DNA from: Syntrophus sp. (in: bacteria)
GTDB taxonomy: Bacteria; Desulfobacterota; Syntrophia; Syntrophales; UBA8958
Direction of reading: 5' to 3'
NCBI GenBank assembly: GCA_025355725.1
Contig: JANXZC010000034.1
Span: 1 to 57,794, forward strand
DNA length: 57,794 nt
Part shown: positions 1 to 57,794 of the stretch, one piece after another
Position numbering within the stretch: the first letter of the stretch is position 1
Layout: each line of letters opens with the position of its first letter
The notes under the pieces: model-generated
Database searches by the model: none
What the model was told of the DNA's origin: nothing
The model's input: only the letters and a program-made list of their open reading frames with translations
Made by a program: the position numbers and the translations under genes

Positions 1-91
1 TTTGCACTTATTAGGCAAATTTTCAAACACAGCACCAGTGAACTCGCCCTACGTTCTCTGCACTGCTGCATGACTTTTTACGAGGGCATCA
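1..91. mobile_element. possible IS/MITE terminus at window edge
   Basis: GACTTTTTACGAGGGCATCA (72-91) resembles the terminal repeat of the element at 40644-40796. A + strand frame entering from the edge stops (TGA 71-73) right at it. Confidence 0.3.
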
Positions 92-139
92 TACTTGGTT
101 ATATCAAGGAAACTTGTCTTTTTTTTGTTACGGAGAGGG

Positions 140-285
140 AAAAAGGTCTTGCGATTAAAAAACATTAAGAGATACCCCCAGTTATTACAGCCACCATAGA
201 AATACCTGGCAAAATACCGATGTTGAAAACATATTGCCCAAAACAGGTCCTTACAGATAACCGCCCATAAGGCCTATTACCTCCC
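140..285 (-). pseudogene. decayed fragment of a TVP38/TMEM64 (VTT/DedA superfamily) gene
   Basis: Minus strand reads REVIGLMGGYL*GPVLGNMFST...FLIARPF, matching GEATGLIGGYLYGPILGTIYST...FIIARFF of the intact gene at 54563-55234. In-frame TAA at 251-253 plus frameshift(s). Confidence 0.75.
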
Positions 286-297
286 TATGTATTACAT

Positions 298-492
298 TCA
301 TTCTTTCTTATTCTCGTTCTTTTTGGCCTCCGTAAGCTCCCCCGGCTTCTCTTCCGGTTCAGCCATAGATCTTTTGAAATCCTTAATCGCTTTCCCCACG
401 GAGCTTCCCAGATCGGGAAGCTTGCCGGGACCGAAGACGATCAAGGCAATGACCAATACGATAACCAATTCCTGCATGCCTATTCCAAACAT
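298..492 (-). CDS. tatA: twin-arginine translocase TatA/TatE subunit (copy 1)
   Basis: MFGIGMQELVIVLVIALIVFGPGKLPDLGSSVGKAIKDFK: TM helix, FGP hinge, amphipathic helix. Start at ATG 492 with AAGGGGA RBS. Confidence 0.93.
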   Translation of the reverse strand: MFGIGMQELVIVLVIALIVFGPGKLPDLGSSVGKAIKDFKRSMAEPEEKPGELTEAKKNENKKE

Positions 493-514
493 ATATTCCC
501 CCTTGTTGTGACGA

Positions 515-880
515 TCAATGTTCCAGGGCTTCCACGATGGCCTTATCCAGCACATTCATATCAATAGGCTTCTTGATGTATTTTAAAACACCCTTCTTGA
601 TGGCTTCATCAATCGTATTTTCATCGTGAAAAGCCGTAATCATAATAACTTTCGCCTGATGATCCTGTTTCCTAAGTTCGTCGTAAACAAAAAACCCGCT
701 TACGTCGGGAAGGCGGATGTCAAGGATCACCAGTTCTGCTCGTGAGGCGGTATATTTGCTGATGCCCGCCCATCCATTGTCCGCGACTTCAACGTCATAA
801 CCTTCTTCAGTCAAATACATGTCAAGCGATTCACGGATGGAATCGTCATCGTCAATGATCAGAATCCTCGACATTGTCAC
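515..880 (-). CDS. single-domain response regulator (receiver only)
   Basis: ILIIDDD, LDIRLP (phospho-acceptor Asp), MITA, KP motifs; no output domain. Start may be ATG 874. Confidence 0.92.
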   Translation of the reverse strand: MTMSRILIIDDDDSIRESLDMYLTEEGYDVEVADNGWAGISKYTASRAELVILDIRLPDVSGFFVYDELRKQDHQAKVIMITAFHDENTIDEAIKKGVLKYIKKPIDMNVLDKAIVEALEH

Positions 881-894
881 CTCGTTTCATTTCT

Positions 895-937
895 TTAACA
901 GATAACCCTGGTATTACCAGGATCATGCAAAGGTTAA
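895..937 (-). promoter_or_regulatory. RNA hairpin between RAPP leader and response regulator
   Basis: mRNA AUGAUCCUGG-UAAUA-CCAGGGUUAU forms a 10-bp stem with two G-U pairs (only pairable on the minus strand), extended by UUAAC/GUUAA. Confidence 0.5.
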
Positions 938-971
938 TGGAGATAGACTATTTGGTTTTCCGCTAATTAAA

Positions 972-1298
972 CTAAAAAAAGGAGGGTGGAGCGCGAGTAT
1001 GAGACGGGCTTAGGTAAATGAGACTTACTTGCCACTTGATTTCTTCGAGGCAGGCTTGAGAGAAAGACAGTTGTTGTGAAAAATTATTTGCGTCTCTCCG
1101 GGCAGGATGAATAAACACCACCTTGACGCTGTGATCATCGGTATCAGCCTGACCGTTCCCACTTTGAATCATGGGAACACTGATATTTAAAGGCTGCCAG
1201 AATCCCGAAATGTCATCTATCCCCGTCAACAGGCATAAAATCATGATGCCAAGGCAGATTATCGGTTTTTGGGAAGAGATTTTTTTATGTATGGCCAT
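972..1298 (-). CDS. RAPP-motif leader protein, putative translation-arrest peptide (copy 1)
   Basis: 108 aa: basic N-terminus, hydrophobic segment, spacer, C-terminal HTRAPPSFF* (RAPP at 984-995). First ORF after a promoter. Confidence 0.7.
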   Translation of the reverse strand: MAIHKKISSQKPIICLGIMILCLLTGIDDISGFWQPLNISVPMIQSGNGQADTDDHSVKVVFIHPARRDANNFSQQLSFSQACLEEIKWQVSLIYLSPSHTRAPPSFF

Positions 1299-1341
1299 AA
1301 GGCGTCTTGCTCTCCGTCAAAGCCCTTAACTCTCAGGGCAG

Positions 1342-1370
1342 ACTATAAGGCGGACAACTTCCGAAGTCAA
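1342..1370 (-). promoter_or_regulatory. sigma70-type promoter for RAPP leader 1 unit
   Basis: TTGACT-N17-TATAGT on minus strand, ~45 nt upstream of ATG 1298. Confidence 0.7.
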
Positions 1371-1423
1371 TTAAAATGATGGGATACCTATCAATCAACT
1401 CGCGTGAATTGGTTGGACCAGAA

Positions 1424-3283
1424 TCACATCACCTGTTTTTCTCCAAATTCGCAGGACAGGACAAAAAAGTCCTCTTCCAGAGCAGTCTTGACGGCATAGG
1501 GAAGTTTCTTGAACAGGCGGATCATGGCGGCGTTACGGTGCGAGGTATAGGCCACCATGCCGGAATAACCATTCCCCATGGCCCCTTGGGCGAGTTTGGT
1601 CAAAATGACATGGGCAATCCCCTTGCCCTGCCAGTCTTTGGAGACGGAAAAAGCGACTTCCACCCGGTTCTGTGCCGGTTCGAGATTATATTCACCAACG
1701 GCGATCACCCTTTCCAGTCCCCCTTCCCCCGTGGCGGCAACAACAGTCATATTCTTGATGTAGTCCACCTGATACATGTCCGCCAGTTGTTCCTGATAGA
1801 AGGTCGAGCGCAACTGGAAGAATCTTGTTGCCACATCCTTGTCGTCCATGGTGTAGAAGTGTTCCTGGATGGGGCGGATATCGGTCGGTTTGACGGGACG
1901 GAAGGTAACCCGGACGCCGCCATATTCCCGGATTTCTTCCAGCCGGACGGGATAGACGCCGAAGAGGGATTCGTTCAGGGTGCGCTCCGGACTGATCAAA
2001 CCCAGTTCCCCGGCCTGCCGGAAAAGCTCTTCCCGAAAGGCGGGATGGGCGATGCTGATCAGGGCCATGGCCCGTTCTTGGAGACTTTTACCGAAGAGAT
2101 TGACCATGCCGTATTCCGTGATGACGTACTGAATATAGCTTTTCGATATGAACACCGCCCCGCAGTCCAGTTCGGGAACAATGTTGCTCTTCTTGCCGTC
2201 GGTTGTAGCGGCAGACAGGACGATTATTGATTTTCCCTCCGGGTTAGCCTGGGCGCCGATGACAAAATCGGCCATCCCGGTAACCCCGGAGAAATAATTC
2301 TCGGGCAGGGCATCAGCGGCAATCTGTCCGGTCAGATCTATGGCCGTGGCGGCATTTACAGAGGTCATCCGCTCCTGCCCAGCAATAATGATAGGGTTAT
2401 TTACATAGTCGGCAGGGTGAAATTCAATGGCGGGATGGTTATGGAGGAATCGGTACAATTCCTCCCCGCCGATGGCCGACTCCGCCACCAATTTTCCTTC
2501 GTGACTGCTCTTATAGCGATTCGTAACCACCCCTTCCTTCATGAGGTGCATGAATCCGTCCGTCATAAACTGGGTATGGACTCCCAGGTCACGCTTGTCC
2601 TTTAAGGCTCTGAGGATGGGGCCGTTATATTCACTCAGCCCCACATGAATCGTAGCGCCGTCCTCAATCAGGCAGGCCACCAGTTCGGCAATCTTCCGGG
2701 CCTCTTCCGTTTCCGGATGTTCCTGAACCGTCGGCAGCGGGGCGTCCCATTCCACAAACACATTTATGTCCCGGACATGGAGAAAGGTGTTCCCATTGAT
2801 GCGGGGCATCTGCGGGTTGACCTGGGCGATCACGAGATCCGCCGCCTGGGCTGCGGCTCTCGTGATATCGACGGATACCCCCAGGCTCATCCATCCGTAT
2901 TCATCGGGCGGGCTGACTTGAATTAGGGCGCAGTTGATCGGCAACTTCCGGGAACGAAAAAGTCGGGGGATGGAGGAAAAACCCATGGGGGTGAGAAAGC
3001 GGCGGATGCCTCTGAGCTGTTCCGTCCGTCCCGACCCCTGATAGATACTCCGGAAGGAAAAGATATGCTCCAGCTCCTGCCGATGCTTCGCCAAGTCGAT
3101 GGTTGCTTCCAATGCCAGGAGGCGGATAATCTCCAGATCGGAGAAGCGATCGCGGTTCTTAATGAGTGCTTCCACAAGATGGCGGGGCGAGCCGCAGGTG
3201 GAGCTAATGAAGACCCGCTGGCCGGAGTGGATCATGGCAATGGCTTCCTCTGCGGTCCTCAATTTTTGCCGGTATTCTTCCAT
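1424..3283 (-). CDS. acetyl-CoA hydrolase/transferase family protein with C-terminal GNAT domain
   Basis: QVSPPDEYGWMSLGVSVD, DLGVHT, IDLTGQ, YVITEYG, ALISIAHP (Cat2/ACH1-like). C-terminal EVAFSVSKDWQGKGIA acetyl-CoA-binding motif A. Confidence 0.9.
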   Translation of the reverse strand: MEEYRQKLRTAEEAIAMIHSGQRVFISSTCGSPRHLVEALIKNRDRFSDLEIIRLLALEATIDLAKHRQELEHIFSFRSIYQGSGRTEQLRGIRRFLTPMGFSSIPRLFRSRKLPINCALIQVSPPDEYGWMSLGVSVDITRAAAQAADLVIAQVNPQMPRINGNTFLHVRDINVFVEWDAPLPTVQEHPETEEARKIAELVACLIEDGATIHVGLSEYNGPILRALKDKRDLGVHTQFMTDGFMHLMKEGVVTNRYKSSHEGKLVAESAIGGEELYRFLHNHPAIEFHPADYVNNPIIIAGQERMTSVNAATAIDLTGQIAADALPENYFSGVTGMADFVIGAQANPEGKSIIVLSAATTDGKKSNIVPELDCGAVFISKSYIQYVITEYGMVNLFGKSLQERAMALISIAHPAFREELFRQAGELGLISPERTLNESLFGVYPVRLEEIREYGGVRVTFRPVKPTDIRPIQEHFYTMDDKDVATRFFQLRSTFYQEQLADMYQVDYIKNMTVVAATGEGGLERVIAVGEYNLEPAQNRVEVAFSVSKDWQGKGIAHVILTKLAQGAMGNGYSGMVAYTSHRNAAMIRLFKKLPYAVKTALEEDFFVLSCEFGEKQVM

Positions 3284-54562: not shown

Positions 54563-55234
54563 TTATGCAGCTTTTTTCTTTAGTTTTTCAAGCAATTTAT
54601 CTCGATAAAAATAAGCAGCTACGAAAACGATCGAGCTTACTCCGACGAGAATGAATAAAGCGCGATACTGCCCATTGCGGACACAGCTTCCGGTTATAGT
54701 TAGCATCAGTGTTCCGAGTAAACGTCCAACTGTCGAAATGGTCAAGAAATGCCACGTCTTCATATGACTTAAACCCATGATGTAGCAGAGGTAATCTTTT
54801 GGTAAACCAGGGATAAGAAAGAGGAGAAATGAAACGAGAATTCCTCTATGTTCCATAAAATGATCAAATTTTTTTAAGACATCTGACGAAACAACTTTTT
54901 CCACCAAAGGCATGCCGAAGAACCTTGCTATTATAAATGCCAGCCAGGAACCAATTGTAAGACCAATTGTTGAATAAATTGTCCCCAGGATTGGACCATA
55001 AAGATAACCGCCAATGAGGCCCGTCGCTTCCCCAGGTATTGGCGCTGCCACCACCTGCATGATCTGAAGCAAAATGAAGACGATTTCATCATAGGGATGA
55101 AATGAATTAATGAATCCTATGCCTTTTTCTTTATTGACAAAGAATTCATACAAATCATGATGGATGAAAACATAAGTCAACAGAAAGACAATCAGAAATA
55201 AGAAAATGATCCTGAAGGCAAGACGTCTATTCAT
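54563..55234 (-). CDS. TVP38/TMEM64 family (VTT domain, DedA superfamily) membrane protein
   Basis: LQIMQVVAAPIPGE, GGYLYG, FLIPGLPKDYLCY, GRLLG. Confidence 0.88.
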   Translation of the reverse strand: MNRRLAFRIIFLFLIVFLLTYVFIHHDLYEFFVNKEKGIGFINSFHPYDEIVFILLQIMQVVAAPIPGEATGLIGGYLYGPILGTIYSTIGLTIGSWLAFIIARFFGMPLVEKVVSSDVLKKFDHFMEHRGILVSFLLFLIPGLPKDYLCYIMGLSHMKTWHFLTISTVGRLLGTLMLTITGSCVRNGQYRALFILVGVSSIVFVAAYFYRDKLLEKLKKKAA

Positions 55235-55252
55235 TGAACAGAAATAGGTGTG

Positions 55253-55453
55253 CTATTCTTTTTTATCATTAATTTTCTTCGCTTCTGAAGTATCTTCCTT
55301 CTTATTCTCAGGTTCTTGCATAGCCTTCTGGAATCCTTTGATTGATTTGCCGAGAGTGCTCCCTAAATCTCCAAGCTTCCCCGGTCCGAAAATGACGAGG
55401 ACAATAATCAAAATTACCAGCAAATGCATCGGTTGAAAAAGACCTTGAAACAT
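55253..55453 (-). CDS. tatA: twin-arginine translocase TatA/TatE subunit (copy 2)
   Basis: HLLVILIIVLVIFGPGKLGDLGSTLGKSIKGFQKAM; AGGAGG RBS. Confidence 0.92.
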   Translation of the reverse strand: MFQGLFQPMHLLVILIIVLVIFGPGKLGDLGSTLGKSIKGFQKAMQEPENKKEDTSEAKKINDKKE

Positions 55454-55728
55454 CTCGCACTACCTCCTGTTCCTTGTGTTTATGGTTTCTTATAGTGCTT
55501 CAAGAGGAAAGTCAATCGAACGGTCACAACAGCTGTCGATGGGAGGACTACATTTCTGTGAATCCCACTTCTTCCTCTGAGTGTAAAGGATTCTTCCCAA
55601 ATATTGGCTCGTAAAATAAGCCTCTGCCAATACGGGAAATGCTTAAATATACCAACTGAGACCGCCATGGATACTAACAATAATCACAGTCACATGAACA
55701 TAACCAGATCTCCAAATGACCAACTCAT

Positions 55729-56229
55729 CTACTTGGAAGAACGCACCGGCAGTGCACGGCCGTTGATGCTGTTCGACTTGGGACTCAAGGCCTGTTCGCC
55801 ATCGAGGAATCGGAGGTAGGCAGCATAGGAGTCGTTAGTTTCAGATGCCCATGGTGCGAAACAGGTAATGTCTATCAACTCCGTTGCTACATGAATGTTA
55901 TTGATAGGATCGCATGCTCCCTGACGGGATTTATTCGCATCATACAGCCCCGCCAGCTCACTCTGTGTCGGCATCCGCCAGTCGGTATAGCCACCCTCAC
56001 GATAATTCTCGCAATAGGACTTAGCGTTCTGCCAGTTAATATCCGAACCGTTGTCCTTTGCCGCCCACATCAGGTTCGTCCGTGTGTCCAGTACTGTCCT
56101 ATTGTCATAGGTGATAAAGCGACCATCCTTGCCAATTTCTCCTGCTGTTGCATACTTCGTTGTAATAAAAGTTCCTGCTAAAATAGCCACCACCATTAAC
56201 ACTACTATCGTTCCTAATGCCCTTTTCAT
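55729..56229 (-). CDS. exported DUF1566 (Lcl-like) domain protein
   Basis: Signal/TM segment; TVLDTRTNLMW, NWQNAKSYC, GYTDWRMPT..EL, ALPVR. Confidence 0.82.
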   Translation of the reverse strand: MKRALGTIVVLMVVAILAGTFITTKYATAGEIGKDGRFITYDNRTVLDTRTNLMWAAKDNGSDINWQNAKSYCENYREGGYTDWRMPTQSELAGLYDANKSRQGACDPINNIHVATELIDITCFAPWASETNDSYAAYLRFLDGEQALSPKSNSINGRALPVRSSK

Positions 56230-56288
56230 CAGTTTGTACCTCCTCCAAGGTTTAACTTGGTTTCTGTTTCATAATTGATTACGCCAAA

Positions 56289-56462
56289 TTATGTTCTTGA
56301 GTCTAGGTTCGGGTAGATTAGCCCTGCTTGCAAGGCGATAAATTTGCTAATCTCCGCCAATCCCTTGTACGCGACTTCAACGTCACAATTTTCTTCTGTC
56401 AAGCACATGTCCAGTGATTCCCGGATGGAATCGTCATCTCCAATAATCAGGATATTCGCCAC
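56289..56462 (-). pseudogene. truncated paralog of the receiver-only response regulator at 515-880
   Basis: GTG start with AGGAGA RBS; ANILIIGDDDSIRESLDMCLTEENCDVEVAYKGLAEISKF matches SRILIIDDDDSIRESLDMYLTEEGYDVEVADNGWAGISKY. It diverges before the phospho-acceptor Asp and stops after 57 aa. Confidence 0.85.
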
Positions 56463-56512
56463 GGTCTCCTTGACTTCTTTTGAAAAATATTTCAGCCTCC
56501 GCTTATGATAGA

Positions 56513-56553
56513 ACCCTCCTCCCGATCTTGATCAGCGGAATCGGAAGGAGGGT
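56513..56553. terminator. hairpin downstream of the small exported protein
   Basis: ACCCTCCT-CCCGAT...ATCGG-AAGGAGGGT imperfect inverted repeat. Confidence 0.45.
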
Positions 56554-56586
56554 AGTCAAGGAGGGACCTTGACAACTTTAACTACT

Positions 56587-56796
56587 CTATTTGTTAATTT
56601 CCGTGTTTTTCACTTCCTCCTGAGGAGCTGGGGCCGATGGAGGTGCTTGCTGATCGGTACTCTGATCGGTGGGTGCGACTATCTTCTGCTGCTCCGGAGG
56701 TGATGTCTGAGGTTCATCGGCATAGGACAGCAAGGGGGCGGCACCAAAGAGGGCCGCCATAAAAGCGGCAAACACTATTTTCTTCATTTTTTTCAT
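56587..56796 (-). CDS. small exported Pro/Gln-rich protein
   Basis: Sec signal peptide MKKMKKIVFAAFMAALFGAAPLLSYA; AAGGAG RBS; low-complexity mature part. Confidence 0.75.
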   Translation of the reverse strand: MKKMKKIVFAAFMAALFGAAPLLSYADEPQTSPPEQQKIVAPTDQSTDQQAPPSAPAPQEEVKNTEINK

Positions 56797-56810
56797 GGGA
56801 ATTATCTCCT

Positions 56811-56924
56811 TTAAGAAAGTTTCATTTTTTTAATTGAGCAATCTGGCCTTTTGTTCGTTAATTTCGTCACGAAGACCAAAAGGGCATAAGATACAAACAG
56901 AATCATCATCGCGGATTCATCCAT
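56811..56924 (-). CDS. 37-aa single-TM small protein (absent from ORF track)
   Basis: GAGGT RBS; MDESAMMILFVSYALLVFVTKLTNKRPDCSIKKMKLS*; the stop overlaps the RBS of the next gene. Confidence 0.5.
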   Translation of the reverse strand: MDESAMMILFVSYALLVFVTKLTNKRPDCSIKKMKLS

Positions 56925-57063
56925 GGCAGTTTACCTCATTTGTTGCCAAGTCAGGGACCCATTGACAAAACCACTAATCTTGCCGAAGGCGTTTTCTCAA
57001 AACCGGTCTATGATGGCCGATACAATAACTTCTTAAGAGGTTACGAAAAGGTAAAGGAACAAA

Positions 57064-57399
57064 CTATAGAGATGAAACTGGGGGTGCCCGGTCTGGTTGG
57101 AAAAAAATTGCAGGTGTGTCAGGAATCAAAAGCCCCATCTCCTGATCAAGATAGGTCTTGATAACGAGATGGGGCAGATAATATTTATTACCATTTTTCG
57201 GGACAAGGTTAGGTGCCTTCCAGGTATGATGTTTGGAATCTCCCGAATCATCATTGTTCAATGATTGGATAAGGGTGGGGTTTGTTTTATAGAATATATT
57301 CTGCGCCACGAGGTCGTCCACCGTTACCGCTGCCACGATAAAGAACAACAGCAATATCTTCAAAACATGGGGTACGACCTGCTTACGCAGCCAAAACAT
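57064..57399 (-). CDS. RAPP-motif leader protein, putative translation-arrest peptide (copy 2)
   Basis: 111 aa from ATG 57399 (GAGGT RBS): basic N-terminus, TM segment, spacer, C-terminal QPDRAPPVSSL* (RAPP at 57079-57090). Confidence 0.7.
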   Translation of the reverse strand: MFWLRKQVVPHVLKILLLFFIVAAVTVDDLVAQNIFYKTNPTLIQSLNNDDSGDSKHHTWKAPNLVPKNGNKYYLPHLVIKTYLDQEMGLLIPDTPAIFFQPDRAPPVSSL

Positions 57400-57430
57400 C
57401 GTTAACCTACCTCTCTGAGTATTGATCGGC

Positions 57431-57459
57431 ATTATATAGAACCATTTCCGGAAAAACAA
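57431..57459 (-). promoter_or_regulatory. sigma70-type promoter for RAPP leader 2 unit
   Basis: TTGTTT-N17-TATAAT on minus strand, ~30 nt upstream of ATG 57399. Confidence 0.6.
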
Positions 57460-57611
57460 GGTCTTCTTTTGCAACGGGAATGGATGGAAATCGTGAAAAT
57501 AATAAACAACAGGAAAATTTGCATCTACCTTACTCGCAGGTCGGAGTTCGTTCTGAATTATCTTTTTTTACGTTCGACATACGAAATAAAGCATTAAGTC
57601 TTAACCGAACT

Positions 57612-57794
57612 CAGTAATGTCCGGTTAAGTAATTGCATATGAGTTTTGTGAACCAGGCGGCTGATATAACCATACGCTGGTATCGTTGACAATATCAGCG
57701 AGGCTCCTTTCGTTACGGATTTTGATACAGATTTCCCTTAGCCGCTTGACGGAAACATGTTCCTGATATTCATCATGGCAATAGATAGCCAAGA
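57612..57794 (-). mobile_element. end of an IS4-family-like element (transposase C-terminus + terminal repeat), truncated by window edge
   Basis: Open frame LAIYCHDEYQEHVSVKRLREICIKIRNE...AIT* (stop 57625-57627) runs into TTAACCGGACATTACTG, which resembles IS4-family termini (recalled, not searched). Confidence 0.55.

Follow-up and report, generated by a model that had tools for sequence, protein, structure and literature searches.

Feedback by translation-arrest peptides has been documented for the Sec and YidC export routes and, lately, for metal uptake, and we found none reported for the twin-arginine translocation (Tat) system. Passages of two studies (PMC12992588, PMC7897499) describe the architecture of upstream open reading frames (uORFs) that carry the arrest motif RAPP: a small protein with an N-terminal localisation signal and the motif near its C terminus, followed by a co-directional gene. 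In ApdA and ApdP, according to a passage of PMC10951233, RAP-tRNA occupies the P site, with Pro-tRNA fully accommodated in the A site and no peptide bond formed. In CruR, copper sensed by a CXXC motif relieves the RAPP stall, and the stall protects from Rho (PMC9426467). Here, we describe two small genes of this general build, leader copies 1 and 2, in a 57,794-nt stretch of DNA from Syntrophus sp. (assembly GCA_025355725.1, contig JANXZC010000034.1, positions 1 to 57,794 of the forward strand; the window, below). We consider it probable, at about 0.7, that they represent a hitherto undescribed family of translation-arrest leaders of the RAPP type, akin to ApdA, ApdP, and CruR and restricted to a few Syntrophales-type genomes. 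A conserved open reading frame (ORF), the invariance and position of an RxPP motif, the paralogy of the two copies, and a recurrent tatA neighbourhood are what we observe; that the ribosome stalls, that the stall is released, and that the genes behind are affected, we infer.

Leader copy 2 occupies positions 57064..57399 of the minus strand, on which all window features given below also lie, and runs from an ATG at 57399 to a TAG at 57064, encoding 111 amino acids plus the stop (MFWLRKQVVPHVLKILLLFFIVAAVTVDD...FFQPDRAPPVSSL). A Shine-Dalgarno-like sequence, AGAGGTAGG, stands 7-8 nt 5' of the ATG. Residues 8-26 (57322..57378) make up a hydrophobic N-terminal segment, a putative signal-anchor that is preceded by R5 and K6 and followed by D28 and D29, and the best 19-residue Kyte-Doolittle window of the protein has a mean of 2.37. 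AlphaFold2, run with 34 aligned sequences, is confident only at this N-terminal helix (mean predicted local distance difference test score, pLDDT, of 72-89 over residues 1-30); block-mean pLDDT is 40-59 over the remainder, and the tail is predicted to be unstructured. The RAPP codons, CGG GCA CCC CCA (57079..57090), specify R104-P107 and are separated from the stop by four residues, VSSL. A preliminary description of this DNA had called the motif terminal, which we correct to four residues following it in copy 2 and three in copy 1.

Set beside the published RAPP uORFs, copy 2 is shorter than 300 amino acids and has its next cistron 139 nt downstream on the same strand, a layout that recurs at copy 1 and among relatives; an N-terminal hydrophobic segment is present by both the hydropathy window and the AlphaFold2 helix, and a near-C-terminal RxPP is kept among homologs. 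A Pfam scan of the two copies returned zero matches at E <= 0.01. Copy 2 is a real small gene with the look of an expressed one, and it probably encodes a bitopic leader peptide. A search for RNA sequencing runs that contain 55200..57600 gave no match. A Tat signal carries a twin arginine of the S/T-R-R-x-F-L-K type before a moderately hydrophobic h-region, and this reading of the leader N terminus was rejected because the twin arginine is not conserved among relatives: copy 2 has LRKQVV and copy 1 HKKISS, and relatives have RKR, RRR, RER, or KQ.

The TTGTTT-N17-TATAAT that the preliminary description placed ahead of copy 2 is indeed there (57431..57459, with TTGTTT at 57459..57454, 17 nt, and TATAAT at 57436..57431). 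A promoter scan left this promoter-like site unlisted because its -35 hexamer matches the consensus at only 3/6 positions. The whole block, including the spacer, is nevertheless conserved as DNA, in the form TTGTTT-N17-TA(T/C)A(A/C)T, in six of eight aligned relatives, which favours the ATG start over a longer, TTG-initiated frame. That 136-aa frame, starting from TTG at 57474, was rejected, since it spans the conserved -10 box and since the stretch is conserved in relatives as DNA and not as protein. Conservation of the block from -35 to -10 goes beyond what the hexamers need, and the spacer (57437..57453) holds a palindrome, TTCCGGAA, which may be a binding site for a regulator.

In a set of 5.8 billion proteins, copy 2 has 6 relatives at 55-84% identity and copy 1 has 21. 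RAPP is invariant in the copy-1 family (22/22 members) and present in 13 of the 14 members of the copy-2 family, the exception being P0004, which has RASP. A joint profile of both families, searched against 1.84 billion cluster representatives (50% identity), gave 27 matches at E <= 0.001; three of these, long repetitive proteins with partial alignments, were dropped, and 24 leader-like representatives of 84-141 aa, mostly 105-115 aa, were kept. Every one of the 24 has R-x-P-P 1-14 residues before the stop, as RAPP in 18, RGPP in 3, RSPP in 2, and RPPP in 1, and these four residues at x (Ala, Gly, Ser, and Pro) coincide exactly with those that a passage of PMC7897499 gives for RxPP stalling sequences. 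RAPP codons vary synonymously between loci, and conservation by alignment column is highest in the last 20 residues and in the hydrophobic segment and lowest in the middle of the protein. With AlphaFold2 confident at the N-terminal helix alone, this is the build of a leader peptide that has an arrest module and a regulator module, as set out in a passage of PMC10951233. Family-wide conservation, the near-C-terminal position, and the synonymous codon variation all support the earlier proposal that RAPP and its placement are under selection. The strict R-[AGSP]-P-P of a diverging family amounts to a natural mutational record of the variants that keep the motif usable.

Motifs of this kind are scarce elsewhere in the genome. 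Six-frame translation of its 3.15 Mb gives 155 RAPP strings, and only three ORFs of at least 50 aa genome-wide have RAPP within 8 residues of the stop, two of which are copies 1 and 2. In open frames of at least 200 codons, RAPP occurs 3 times versus 32 times for AAPP, in agreement with the proteome-wide avoidance of RAPP reported in a passage of PMC12992588. This strong avoidance, here and generally, is hard to square with the leader being a small bitopic protein of the ordinary sort that has its own task in the membrane, such as assisting the TatA-DedA module, and in which RAPP would be a conserved structural or slow-translation feature without regulatory effect on the genes behind. The same holds for the substitutions at x, which all stay within the RxPP stalling class, for a motif that never strays from its place close to the stop, and for the predicted lack of structure in the tail. 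An ordinary protein would, however, account for purifying selection along the whole length, with ratios of nonsynonymous to synonymous substitution (dN/dS) of 0.3-0.8 in the homolog alignments (0.33-0.54 in 7 pairs for copy 2 and 0.33-0.76 in 5 pairs for copy 1; two more pairs had saturated dS). It would also account for the conservation of DD, IQS, and W/K outside the arrest region and for the failure of folding, described below, to support unmasking of a ribosome-binding site (RBS). On balance, we hold this explanation to be improbable.

Leader copy 1 (972..1298) encodes 108 aa ending in ...SHTRAPPSFF, with RAPP at residues 102-105 and the three residues SFF before the stop. Its promoter-like site, TTGACT-N17-TATAGT (1342..1370), has 10/12 matches. 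Low overall identity between the copies and their similar lengths (111 versus 108 aa) stand as first stated, and so do the shared landmarks: in both, the hydrophobic segment ends in VDD or IDD, (L/M)IQS lies at residues 43-46, and an acidic cluster is followed by His. It is also true that the RAPP codons differ, at all four positions (CGC GCT CCA CCC in copy 1). The claim that the copies are diverged paralogs fared differently by method. BLASTP of copy 1 against copy 2 is not significant (E = 1.0 over 19 residues), and a semi-global BLOSUM62 comparison scores 10, just what shuffles score on average, 972/2000 of them being equal or better; at the pairwise level, therefore, the comparison with shuffled sequences goes against paralogy, and it is family-level evidence that reverses this outcome. 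Profiles of the two families compared with hhalign gave E 6.7e-4 and a probability of 27% before enrichment, and after members from genomes and metagenome contigs were added, they aligned collinearly over 99 columns (E 1.2e-5, probability 81%), from the N terminus through DD, IQS, and the acidic/His cluster to RAPP.

Gene order tells the same story. Leader, receiver, tatA, and DedA follow one another at both loci, as genes or remnants, and a genome of the same genus has a bridging arrangement (G132:C22) in which a copy-2-type leader is followed by a 37-aa ORF, a 69-aa protein, an intact receiver that is 87% identical to the copy-1 receiver, a DUF2147 protein, a copy-1-type TatA, and DedA. Paralogy of copies 1 and 2 is accordingly supported by these sequence comparisons. 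Were the copies instead independent leaders that converged on a transmembrane (TM) segment and RAPP, with the other landmarks shared by chance, the BLASTP result, the shuffle-level pairwise score, and the weak first profile comparison would all be expected; the collinearity of the enriched profiles, the matching order of paralogous genes or remnants for receiver, TatA, and DedA at the two loci, and the mixed locus of G132:C22 would not, and we judge convergence to be very improbable indeed.

The family is patchily distributed, given that the joint profile matches 11 of 339 genomes of the class in only 5 of 24 families. Of the 18 genomes in the family to which the window belongs, 5 have a match, and these share one genus; a single genome, G132, has five leader copies; weak profile matches in G191 and G181 (E about 0.005-0.007) were excluded from these counts. 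Scanning metagenomes with the copy-2 family yielded only 4 short loci, and scanning the genome collection with the copy-1 family yielded only 3 loci, already found. For neighbourhoods, we counted the 16 loci with enough downstream sequence and left out six more that end at contig edges. In 8 of the 16 (both window copies, G175, G157, G055:C67, G132:C22, G132:C19, and G238), a co-directional tatA stands no more than 2 kb downstream, in five different arrangements, and in G055:C67, it is the first gene behind the leader, after a 131-nt spacer. The link between leader and tatA is recurrent but not universal, and this neighbourhood hints at a stalling-peptide switch for Tat export.

At copy 1, the compact leader-receiver-tatA form is retained. 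A stand-alone CheY-like receiver gene of 121 aa (515..880; Pfam PF00072, E 4e-28) is followed by tatA paralog 1 of 64 aa (298..492; PF02416, E 3e-17) and then by a DedA-like remnant (221..283), a VTT fragment of 21 aa (E 0.002). At the loci without tatA, the genes behind the leader are diverse. They comprise an HU-like gene and DUF1003 (G070); an epimerase (G019 and G240, the latter with the motif RPPP); a receiver and a dihydrodipicolinate synthase (DHDPS)-family gene (G132:C63); the small subunit of an [NiFe] hydrogenase, with a twin-arginine signal (SRRAFIK), and its large subunit (G132:C44, L032 6398..9894); a DsbD_2-like membrane protein that bears a His-rich loop, together with an Fe-S biosynthesis protein (G334:C56, L085 759..1824); and an sCache methyl-accepting chemotaxis protein (MCP) behind a third, more diverged leader that ends in RAPPSFS (G055:C46, L086 1..1818). 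In the last three of these loci, the leader is directly upstream of the genes named. The remaining locus, in G150 (G150:C20), has a broken receiver and a frameshifted leader tail and looks decayed because the receiver is broken and no tatA stands behind it; there (L016 6097..6471), a one-base difference just past RAPP lengthens the frame (RAPPPFHSSISG...). The leader cassette thus appears modular, and since it stands before unrelated genes, a cis-regulator fits better than a dedicated partner protein.

Two of these neighbourhoods bear on what might release a stall. In a ligand-released arrest like that of CruR, the tail's conserved Asp/His cluster, NDDxGDSxxH for copy 2 and QxDxxDH for copy 1, would bind a periplasmic or cytoplasmic metal, for example, nickel, which would relieve the stall and tune Tat capacity, the [NiFe] hydrogenase, and the metal-transporter-like protein. 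Acidic residues and a His are kept in both families, leaders do stand upstream of the hydrogenase subunit genes and before the protein with the His-rich loop, and CruR itself provides a precedent. The leaders have no Cys and no canonical metal-binding motif, however, their His is only nearly invariant and their acidic cluster variable, and the MCP, epimerase, and HU-like protein are also among the downstream genes. We regard release by a ligand as rather improbable.

An arrest leader that reports on its own translocation would instead work as follows. Transcription of copy 2 would start at its own promoter-like site, and the signal-anchor, with its positive N terminus, 19 hydrophobic residues, and DD, would bring the nascent chain to the membrane. 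With R104-A105-P106 on the P-site tRNA and Pro107-tRNA in the A site, peptide bond formation would stall. We place the P site on the CCC at 57084..57082 because the geometry is taken from ApdA and ApdP, and the mRNA channel of the stalled ribosome would then reach roughly to the stop codon. Moving the extracytoplasmic tail, acidic and unstructured, across the membrane would pull on the chain and free the stall, a release by pulling force that is suggested by the presence of a signal-anchor and by the behaviour of the classical monitoring substrates. When insertion or translocation is poor, through Sec/YidC capacity or the proton-motive force, the ribosome would stay parked on the last five codons and would raise expression of the genes behind it, which code for a 37-aa peptide and a secreted protein of 69 aa and, in an ancestral arrangement that copy 1 and relatives have kept, for a CheY-like receiver, a TatA paralog, and DedA as well. 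The default reading of the sensed signal is Sec/YidC-dependent translocation, perhaps with a component of proton-motive force, because the conserved acidic residues must cross the membrane.

For the transmission of a stall to the genes behind, we would give about 40% to shielding of a C-rich, rut-like tract from Rho and about 25% to remodelling of the mRNA near the next start, the route of SecM and MifM, with the rest going to other routes; the Rho route has somewhat better odds than the RBS route. A tract with more C than G is centred on the stall site in 16/16 loci (C 28-36% and G 11-20% over 100 nt), and its flanks show no consistent bias. At copy 2, C makes up 33-35% versus 13% for G in 60-nt windows of 57130..57041; the 139-nt spacer that follows the stop (56925..57063) is C-rich and G-poor in its 5' part, as is the 3' end of the leader. 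Rho is encoded in the genome, and the C-rich tract fits Rho-dependent control of the kind known from CruR. As for the RBS, the preliminary description had proposed that UUUACCUU (57055..57048), just after the stop, pairs with GAGGUAAA (56937..56930), ahead of the next ORF. The complementarity exists, and the start of the tract pairs with the RBS region in the minimum-free-energy fold, although the pairing is weak; only its 4-bp core, CCUU:RAGG, is kept in 4 relatives, without compensatory changes. Codons just past RAPP can pair over 9 bp with the start region of the 37-aa ORF in 4/4 copy-2-type loci, and where the leader is of the copy-1 type, CCUUUGCAU forms pairs with the start of the receiver gene.

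Several results weigh against an arrest leader or against parts of the scheme just given. Single folds from leader to spacer are no better than shuffles (z = +0.97 for the copy 2 region and -1.0), and consensus folding, with 4 sequences from each family, brought out no covariation of use. When 28 nt at RAPP were forced to be unpaired in partition-function calculations, as under a stalled footprint, accessibility of the RBS and start shifted by at most 0.04 in 9 of 10 loci and fell in the tenth, so that no gain appeared. On these three grounds, the model in which the stall unmasks the RBS was set aside as unsupported by folding. Pro and Ser codons account for part of the C>G tract. RAPP alone is insufficient for stable arrest in ApdA and ApdP, as stated in a passage of PMC7897499, and the family contains the RASP member and the genome with a frameshifted leader tail. 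Genes other than tatA follow the leader in 8/16 informative loci. Around the 30 best matches to TatA 2 among 301 genomes of the order, no ORF ending in RxPP lies within 1.5-kb flanks, one of these matches being the window itself, whose leader is just beyond the flank. Finally, control of tatA 2 by copy 2 in its own genome is doubtful because the receiver there is truncated and tatA is 1.6 kb off, behind an inserted Lcl_C gene. Leader copy 2 is intact and conserved, but its operon is decayed, and the targets of its control, if any, are probably the 37-aa ORF and the 69-aa protein.

The first cistron past leader copy 2 is the 37-aa hydrophobic small ORF (56811..56924, starting MDESAMMILFVSYALLVFVTKL...). 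It is open and conserved in 4/4 loci that have one, with a pN/pS of 0.33-0.42 to the most distant copy, and two metagenome contigs (L037 among them) have it fused with the 69-aa gene in one frame; it is probably a real small membrane peptide. The 69-aa protein (56587..56796) has a signal-peptide-like N terminus and a Pro/Gln-rich tail, with relatives in L036 and L037, and a Pfam scan of both products found no family. Next comes a 13-bp GC-rich hairpin (56514..56552, CYCTCCTYCCGAT...ATCGGDAGGAGRG) that carries CCUCC and GGAGG strings, which are anti-Shine-Dalgarno-like and Shine-Dalgarno-like, respectively. The hairpin recurs at L031 6502..6540, L036 1396..1434, L037 1067..1105, and L035 6562..6601, with one compensatory change in L036, 3' of the 69-aa gene and directly before the receiver gene (before tatA in G238). 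The operon may have a second point of control here. An Rfam scan of 55000..57794 and 1..1500, the hairpin included, gave nothing at E <= 1.

Beyond the hairpin, a truncated receiver remnant (56316..56465) matches only residues 2-51 of the copy-1 receiver, at 63-66% identity (66% over 50 aa by tblastn, with nothing further; BLASTP), and has a weak Pfam Response_reg match. The Lcl_C-domain protein (55729..56229; PF07603, E 1.7e-18) stands between this remnant and tatA paralog 2 (55253..55453), which encodes 66 aa (PF02416, E 2e-16) and is 54% identical to TatA 1; a DedA/VTT-domain membrane protein (54563..55234; PF09335) follows. A Pfam scan of the genes behind copy 2, namely, those for the small peptide, the secreted-looking protein, the receiver remnant, Lcl_C, tatA, and DedA, revealed no sec or yidC gene. 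DSBA-like thioredoxin genes stand directly upstream of copy-2-type leaders in two genomes (L034 4694..5251 and L035 5400..5921). Each leader locus is no more than 1.3 kb from one end of the 57.8-kb contig, one at either end, and contig ends are likewise where several relatives lie; the two window ends showed no mutual overlap when compared, and paralogous leader copies may break assemblies.

The genome has 4 TatA/B-family matches in its 3.15 Mb and one tatC, and neither the third tatA (C102) nor the tatB-tatC pair has such a leader. A homolog of the window's DedA follows this type of tatA in 4/6 inspected loci of the order (L047, L059, L068, and L073), so tatA-dedA looks like an older unit that the leader cassette joined in a few lineages only. 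In E. coli, DedA mutants have Tat export defects, and the energy metabolism of organisms such as the one studied here depends on Tat-exported hydrogenases and formate dehydrogenases. A bolder reading, which we put forward tentatively and think unlikely, is that the leader family is a portable membrane-coupled arrest cassette, the first to control Tat export, that would sense translocation efficiency, membrane energisation, or, via its acidic/His tail, metal, and would switch on extra TatA-DedA modules. Sister copies of such a cassette would switch on the Tat-exported [NiFe] hydrogenase and the His-rich transporter-like protein, and the Tat capacity of syntrophic bacteria would be tied to membrane state. 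If both the stall and an effect on tatA hold, they would also provide a directly testable case of cross-talk in which membrane targeting during translation meets Tat export, which is post-translational.

We found no earlier report of an association between arrest leaders and Tat. The main texts of PMC10987492, PMC12992588, and PMC7897499 do not mention Tat; the Fig. 4B table of PMC12992588 lists 30 enriched downstream groups, none of which is tatA; the supplementary text of that paper, as far as it is legible, contains none of "TatA," "twin-arginine," and "Sec-independent"; and a literature search joining arrest peptide, monitoring substrate, and TatA brought up no relevant paper. The DUF2946 (CruR) and SecM_small profiles of Pfam match neither leader copy at E <= 0.01, and a protein-language-model search has SecM_small (0.93) and DUF2946 (CruR-type, 0.92) among the nearest named clusters, which serves as a lead only.

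Among known systems, SecM, MifM, and VemP share with the leaders described here a membrane-targeted nascent chain, a C-terminal arrest point, and an export-pathway gene behind, and MifM is also TM-anchored. The arrest motifs of MifM and VemP differ from RAPP, however, and a Tat gene stands behind the leaders here, for which the computed unmasking of the RBS is absent. The logic by which the leader is a substrate of the machine that it regulates does not obviously apply, because Tat does not act on nascent chains, and the leaders fall outside the definition of Sec/YidC monitoring substrates (SecM, MifM, VemP, ApdA, ApdP, and ApcA) because the gene behind is not sec or yidC. CruR (DUF2946; Bordetella), which controls a TonB-dependent transporter through Rho, is alike in several ways: the leader is exported, RAPP is set off from the stop by 3 residues, C exceeds G in the 3' part of the uORF and on into the spacer, and the operon behind has no relation to Sec/YidC; unlike CruR, the leaders here have no CXXC and no DUF2946 match, and their Rho dependence is suggested by base composition only. 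ApdA and ApdP, which lie upstream of secDF (Sakiyama 2021, Morici 2024), likewise have about 100-130 aa, an N-terminal TM or signal sequence, RAPP a few residues before the stop that is conserved in homologs, and a co-directional gene behind. Homology to them is not detectable, the leaders here forming a separate family without a Pfam match, and in place of secDF, a receiver, tatA, and DedA, or other genes, stand behind. With the RAPP/RGPP uORFs at large (Fujiwara 2025, EMBO J), the leaders share a length below 300 aa, a localisation signal, a near-C-terminal motif, and a patchy phylogenetic distribution.

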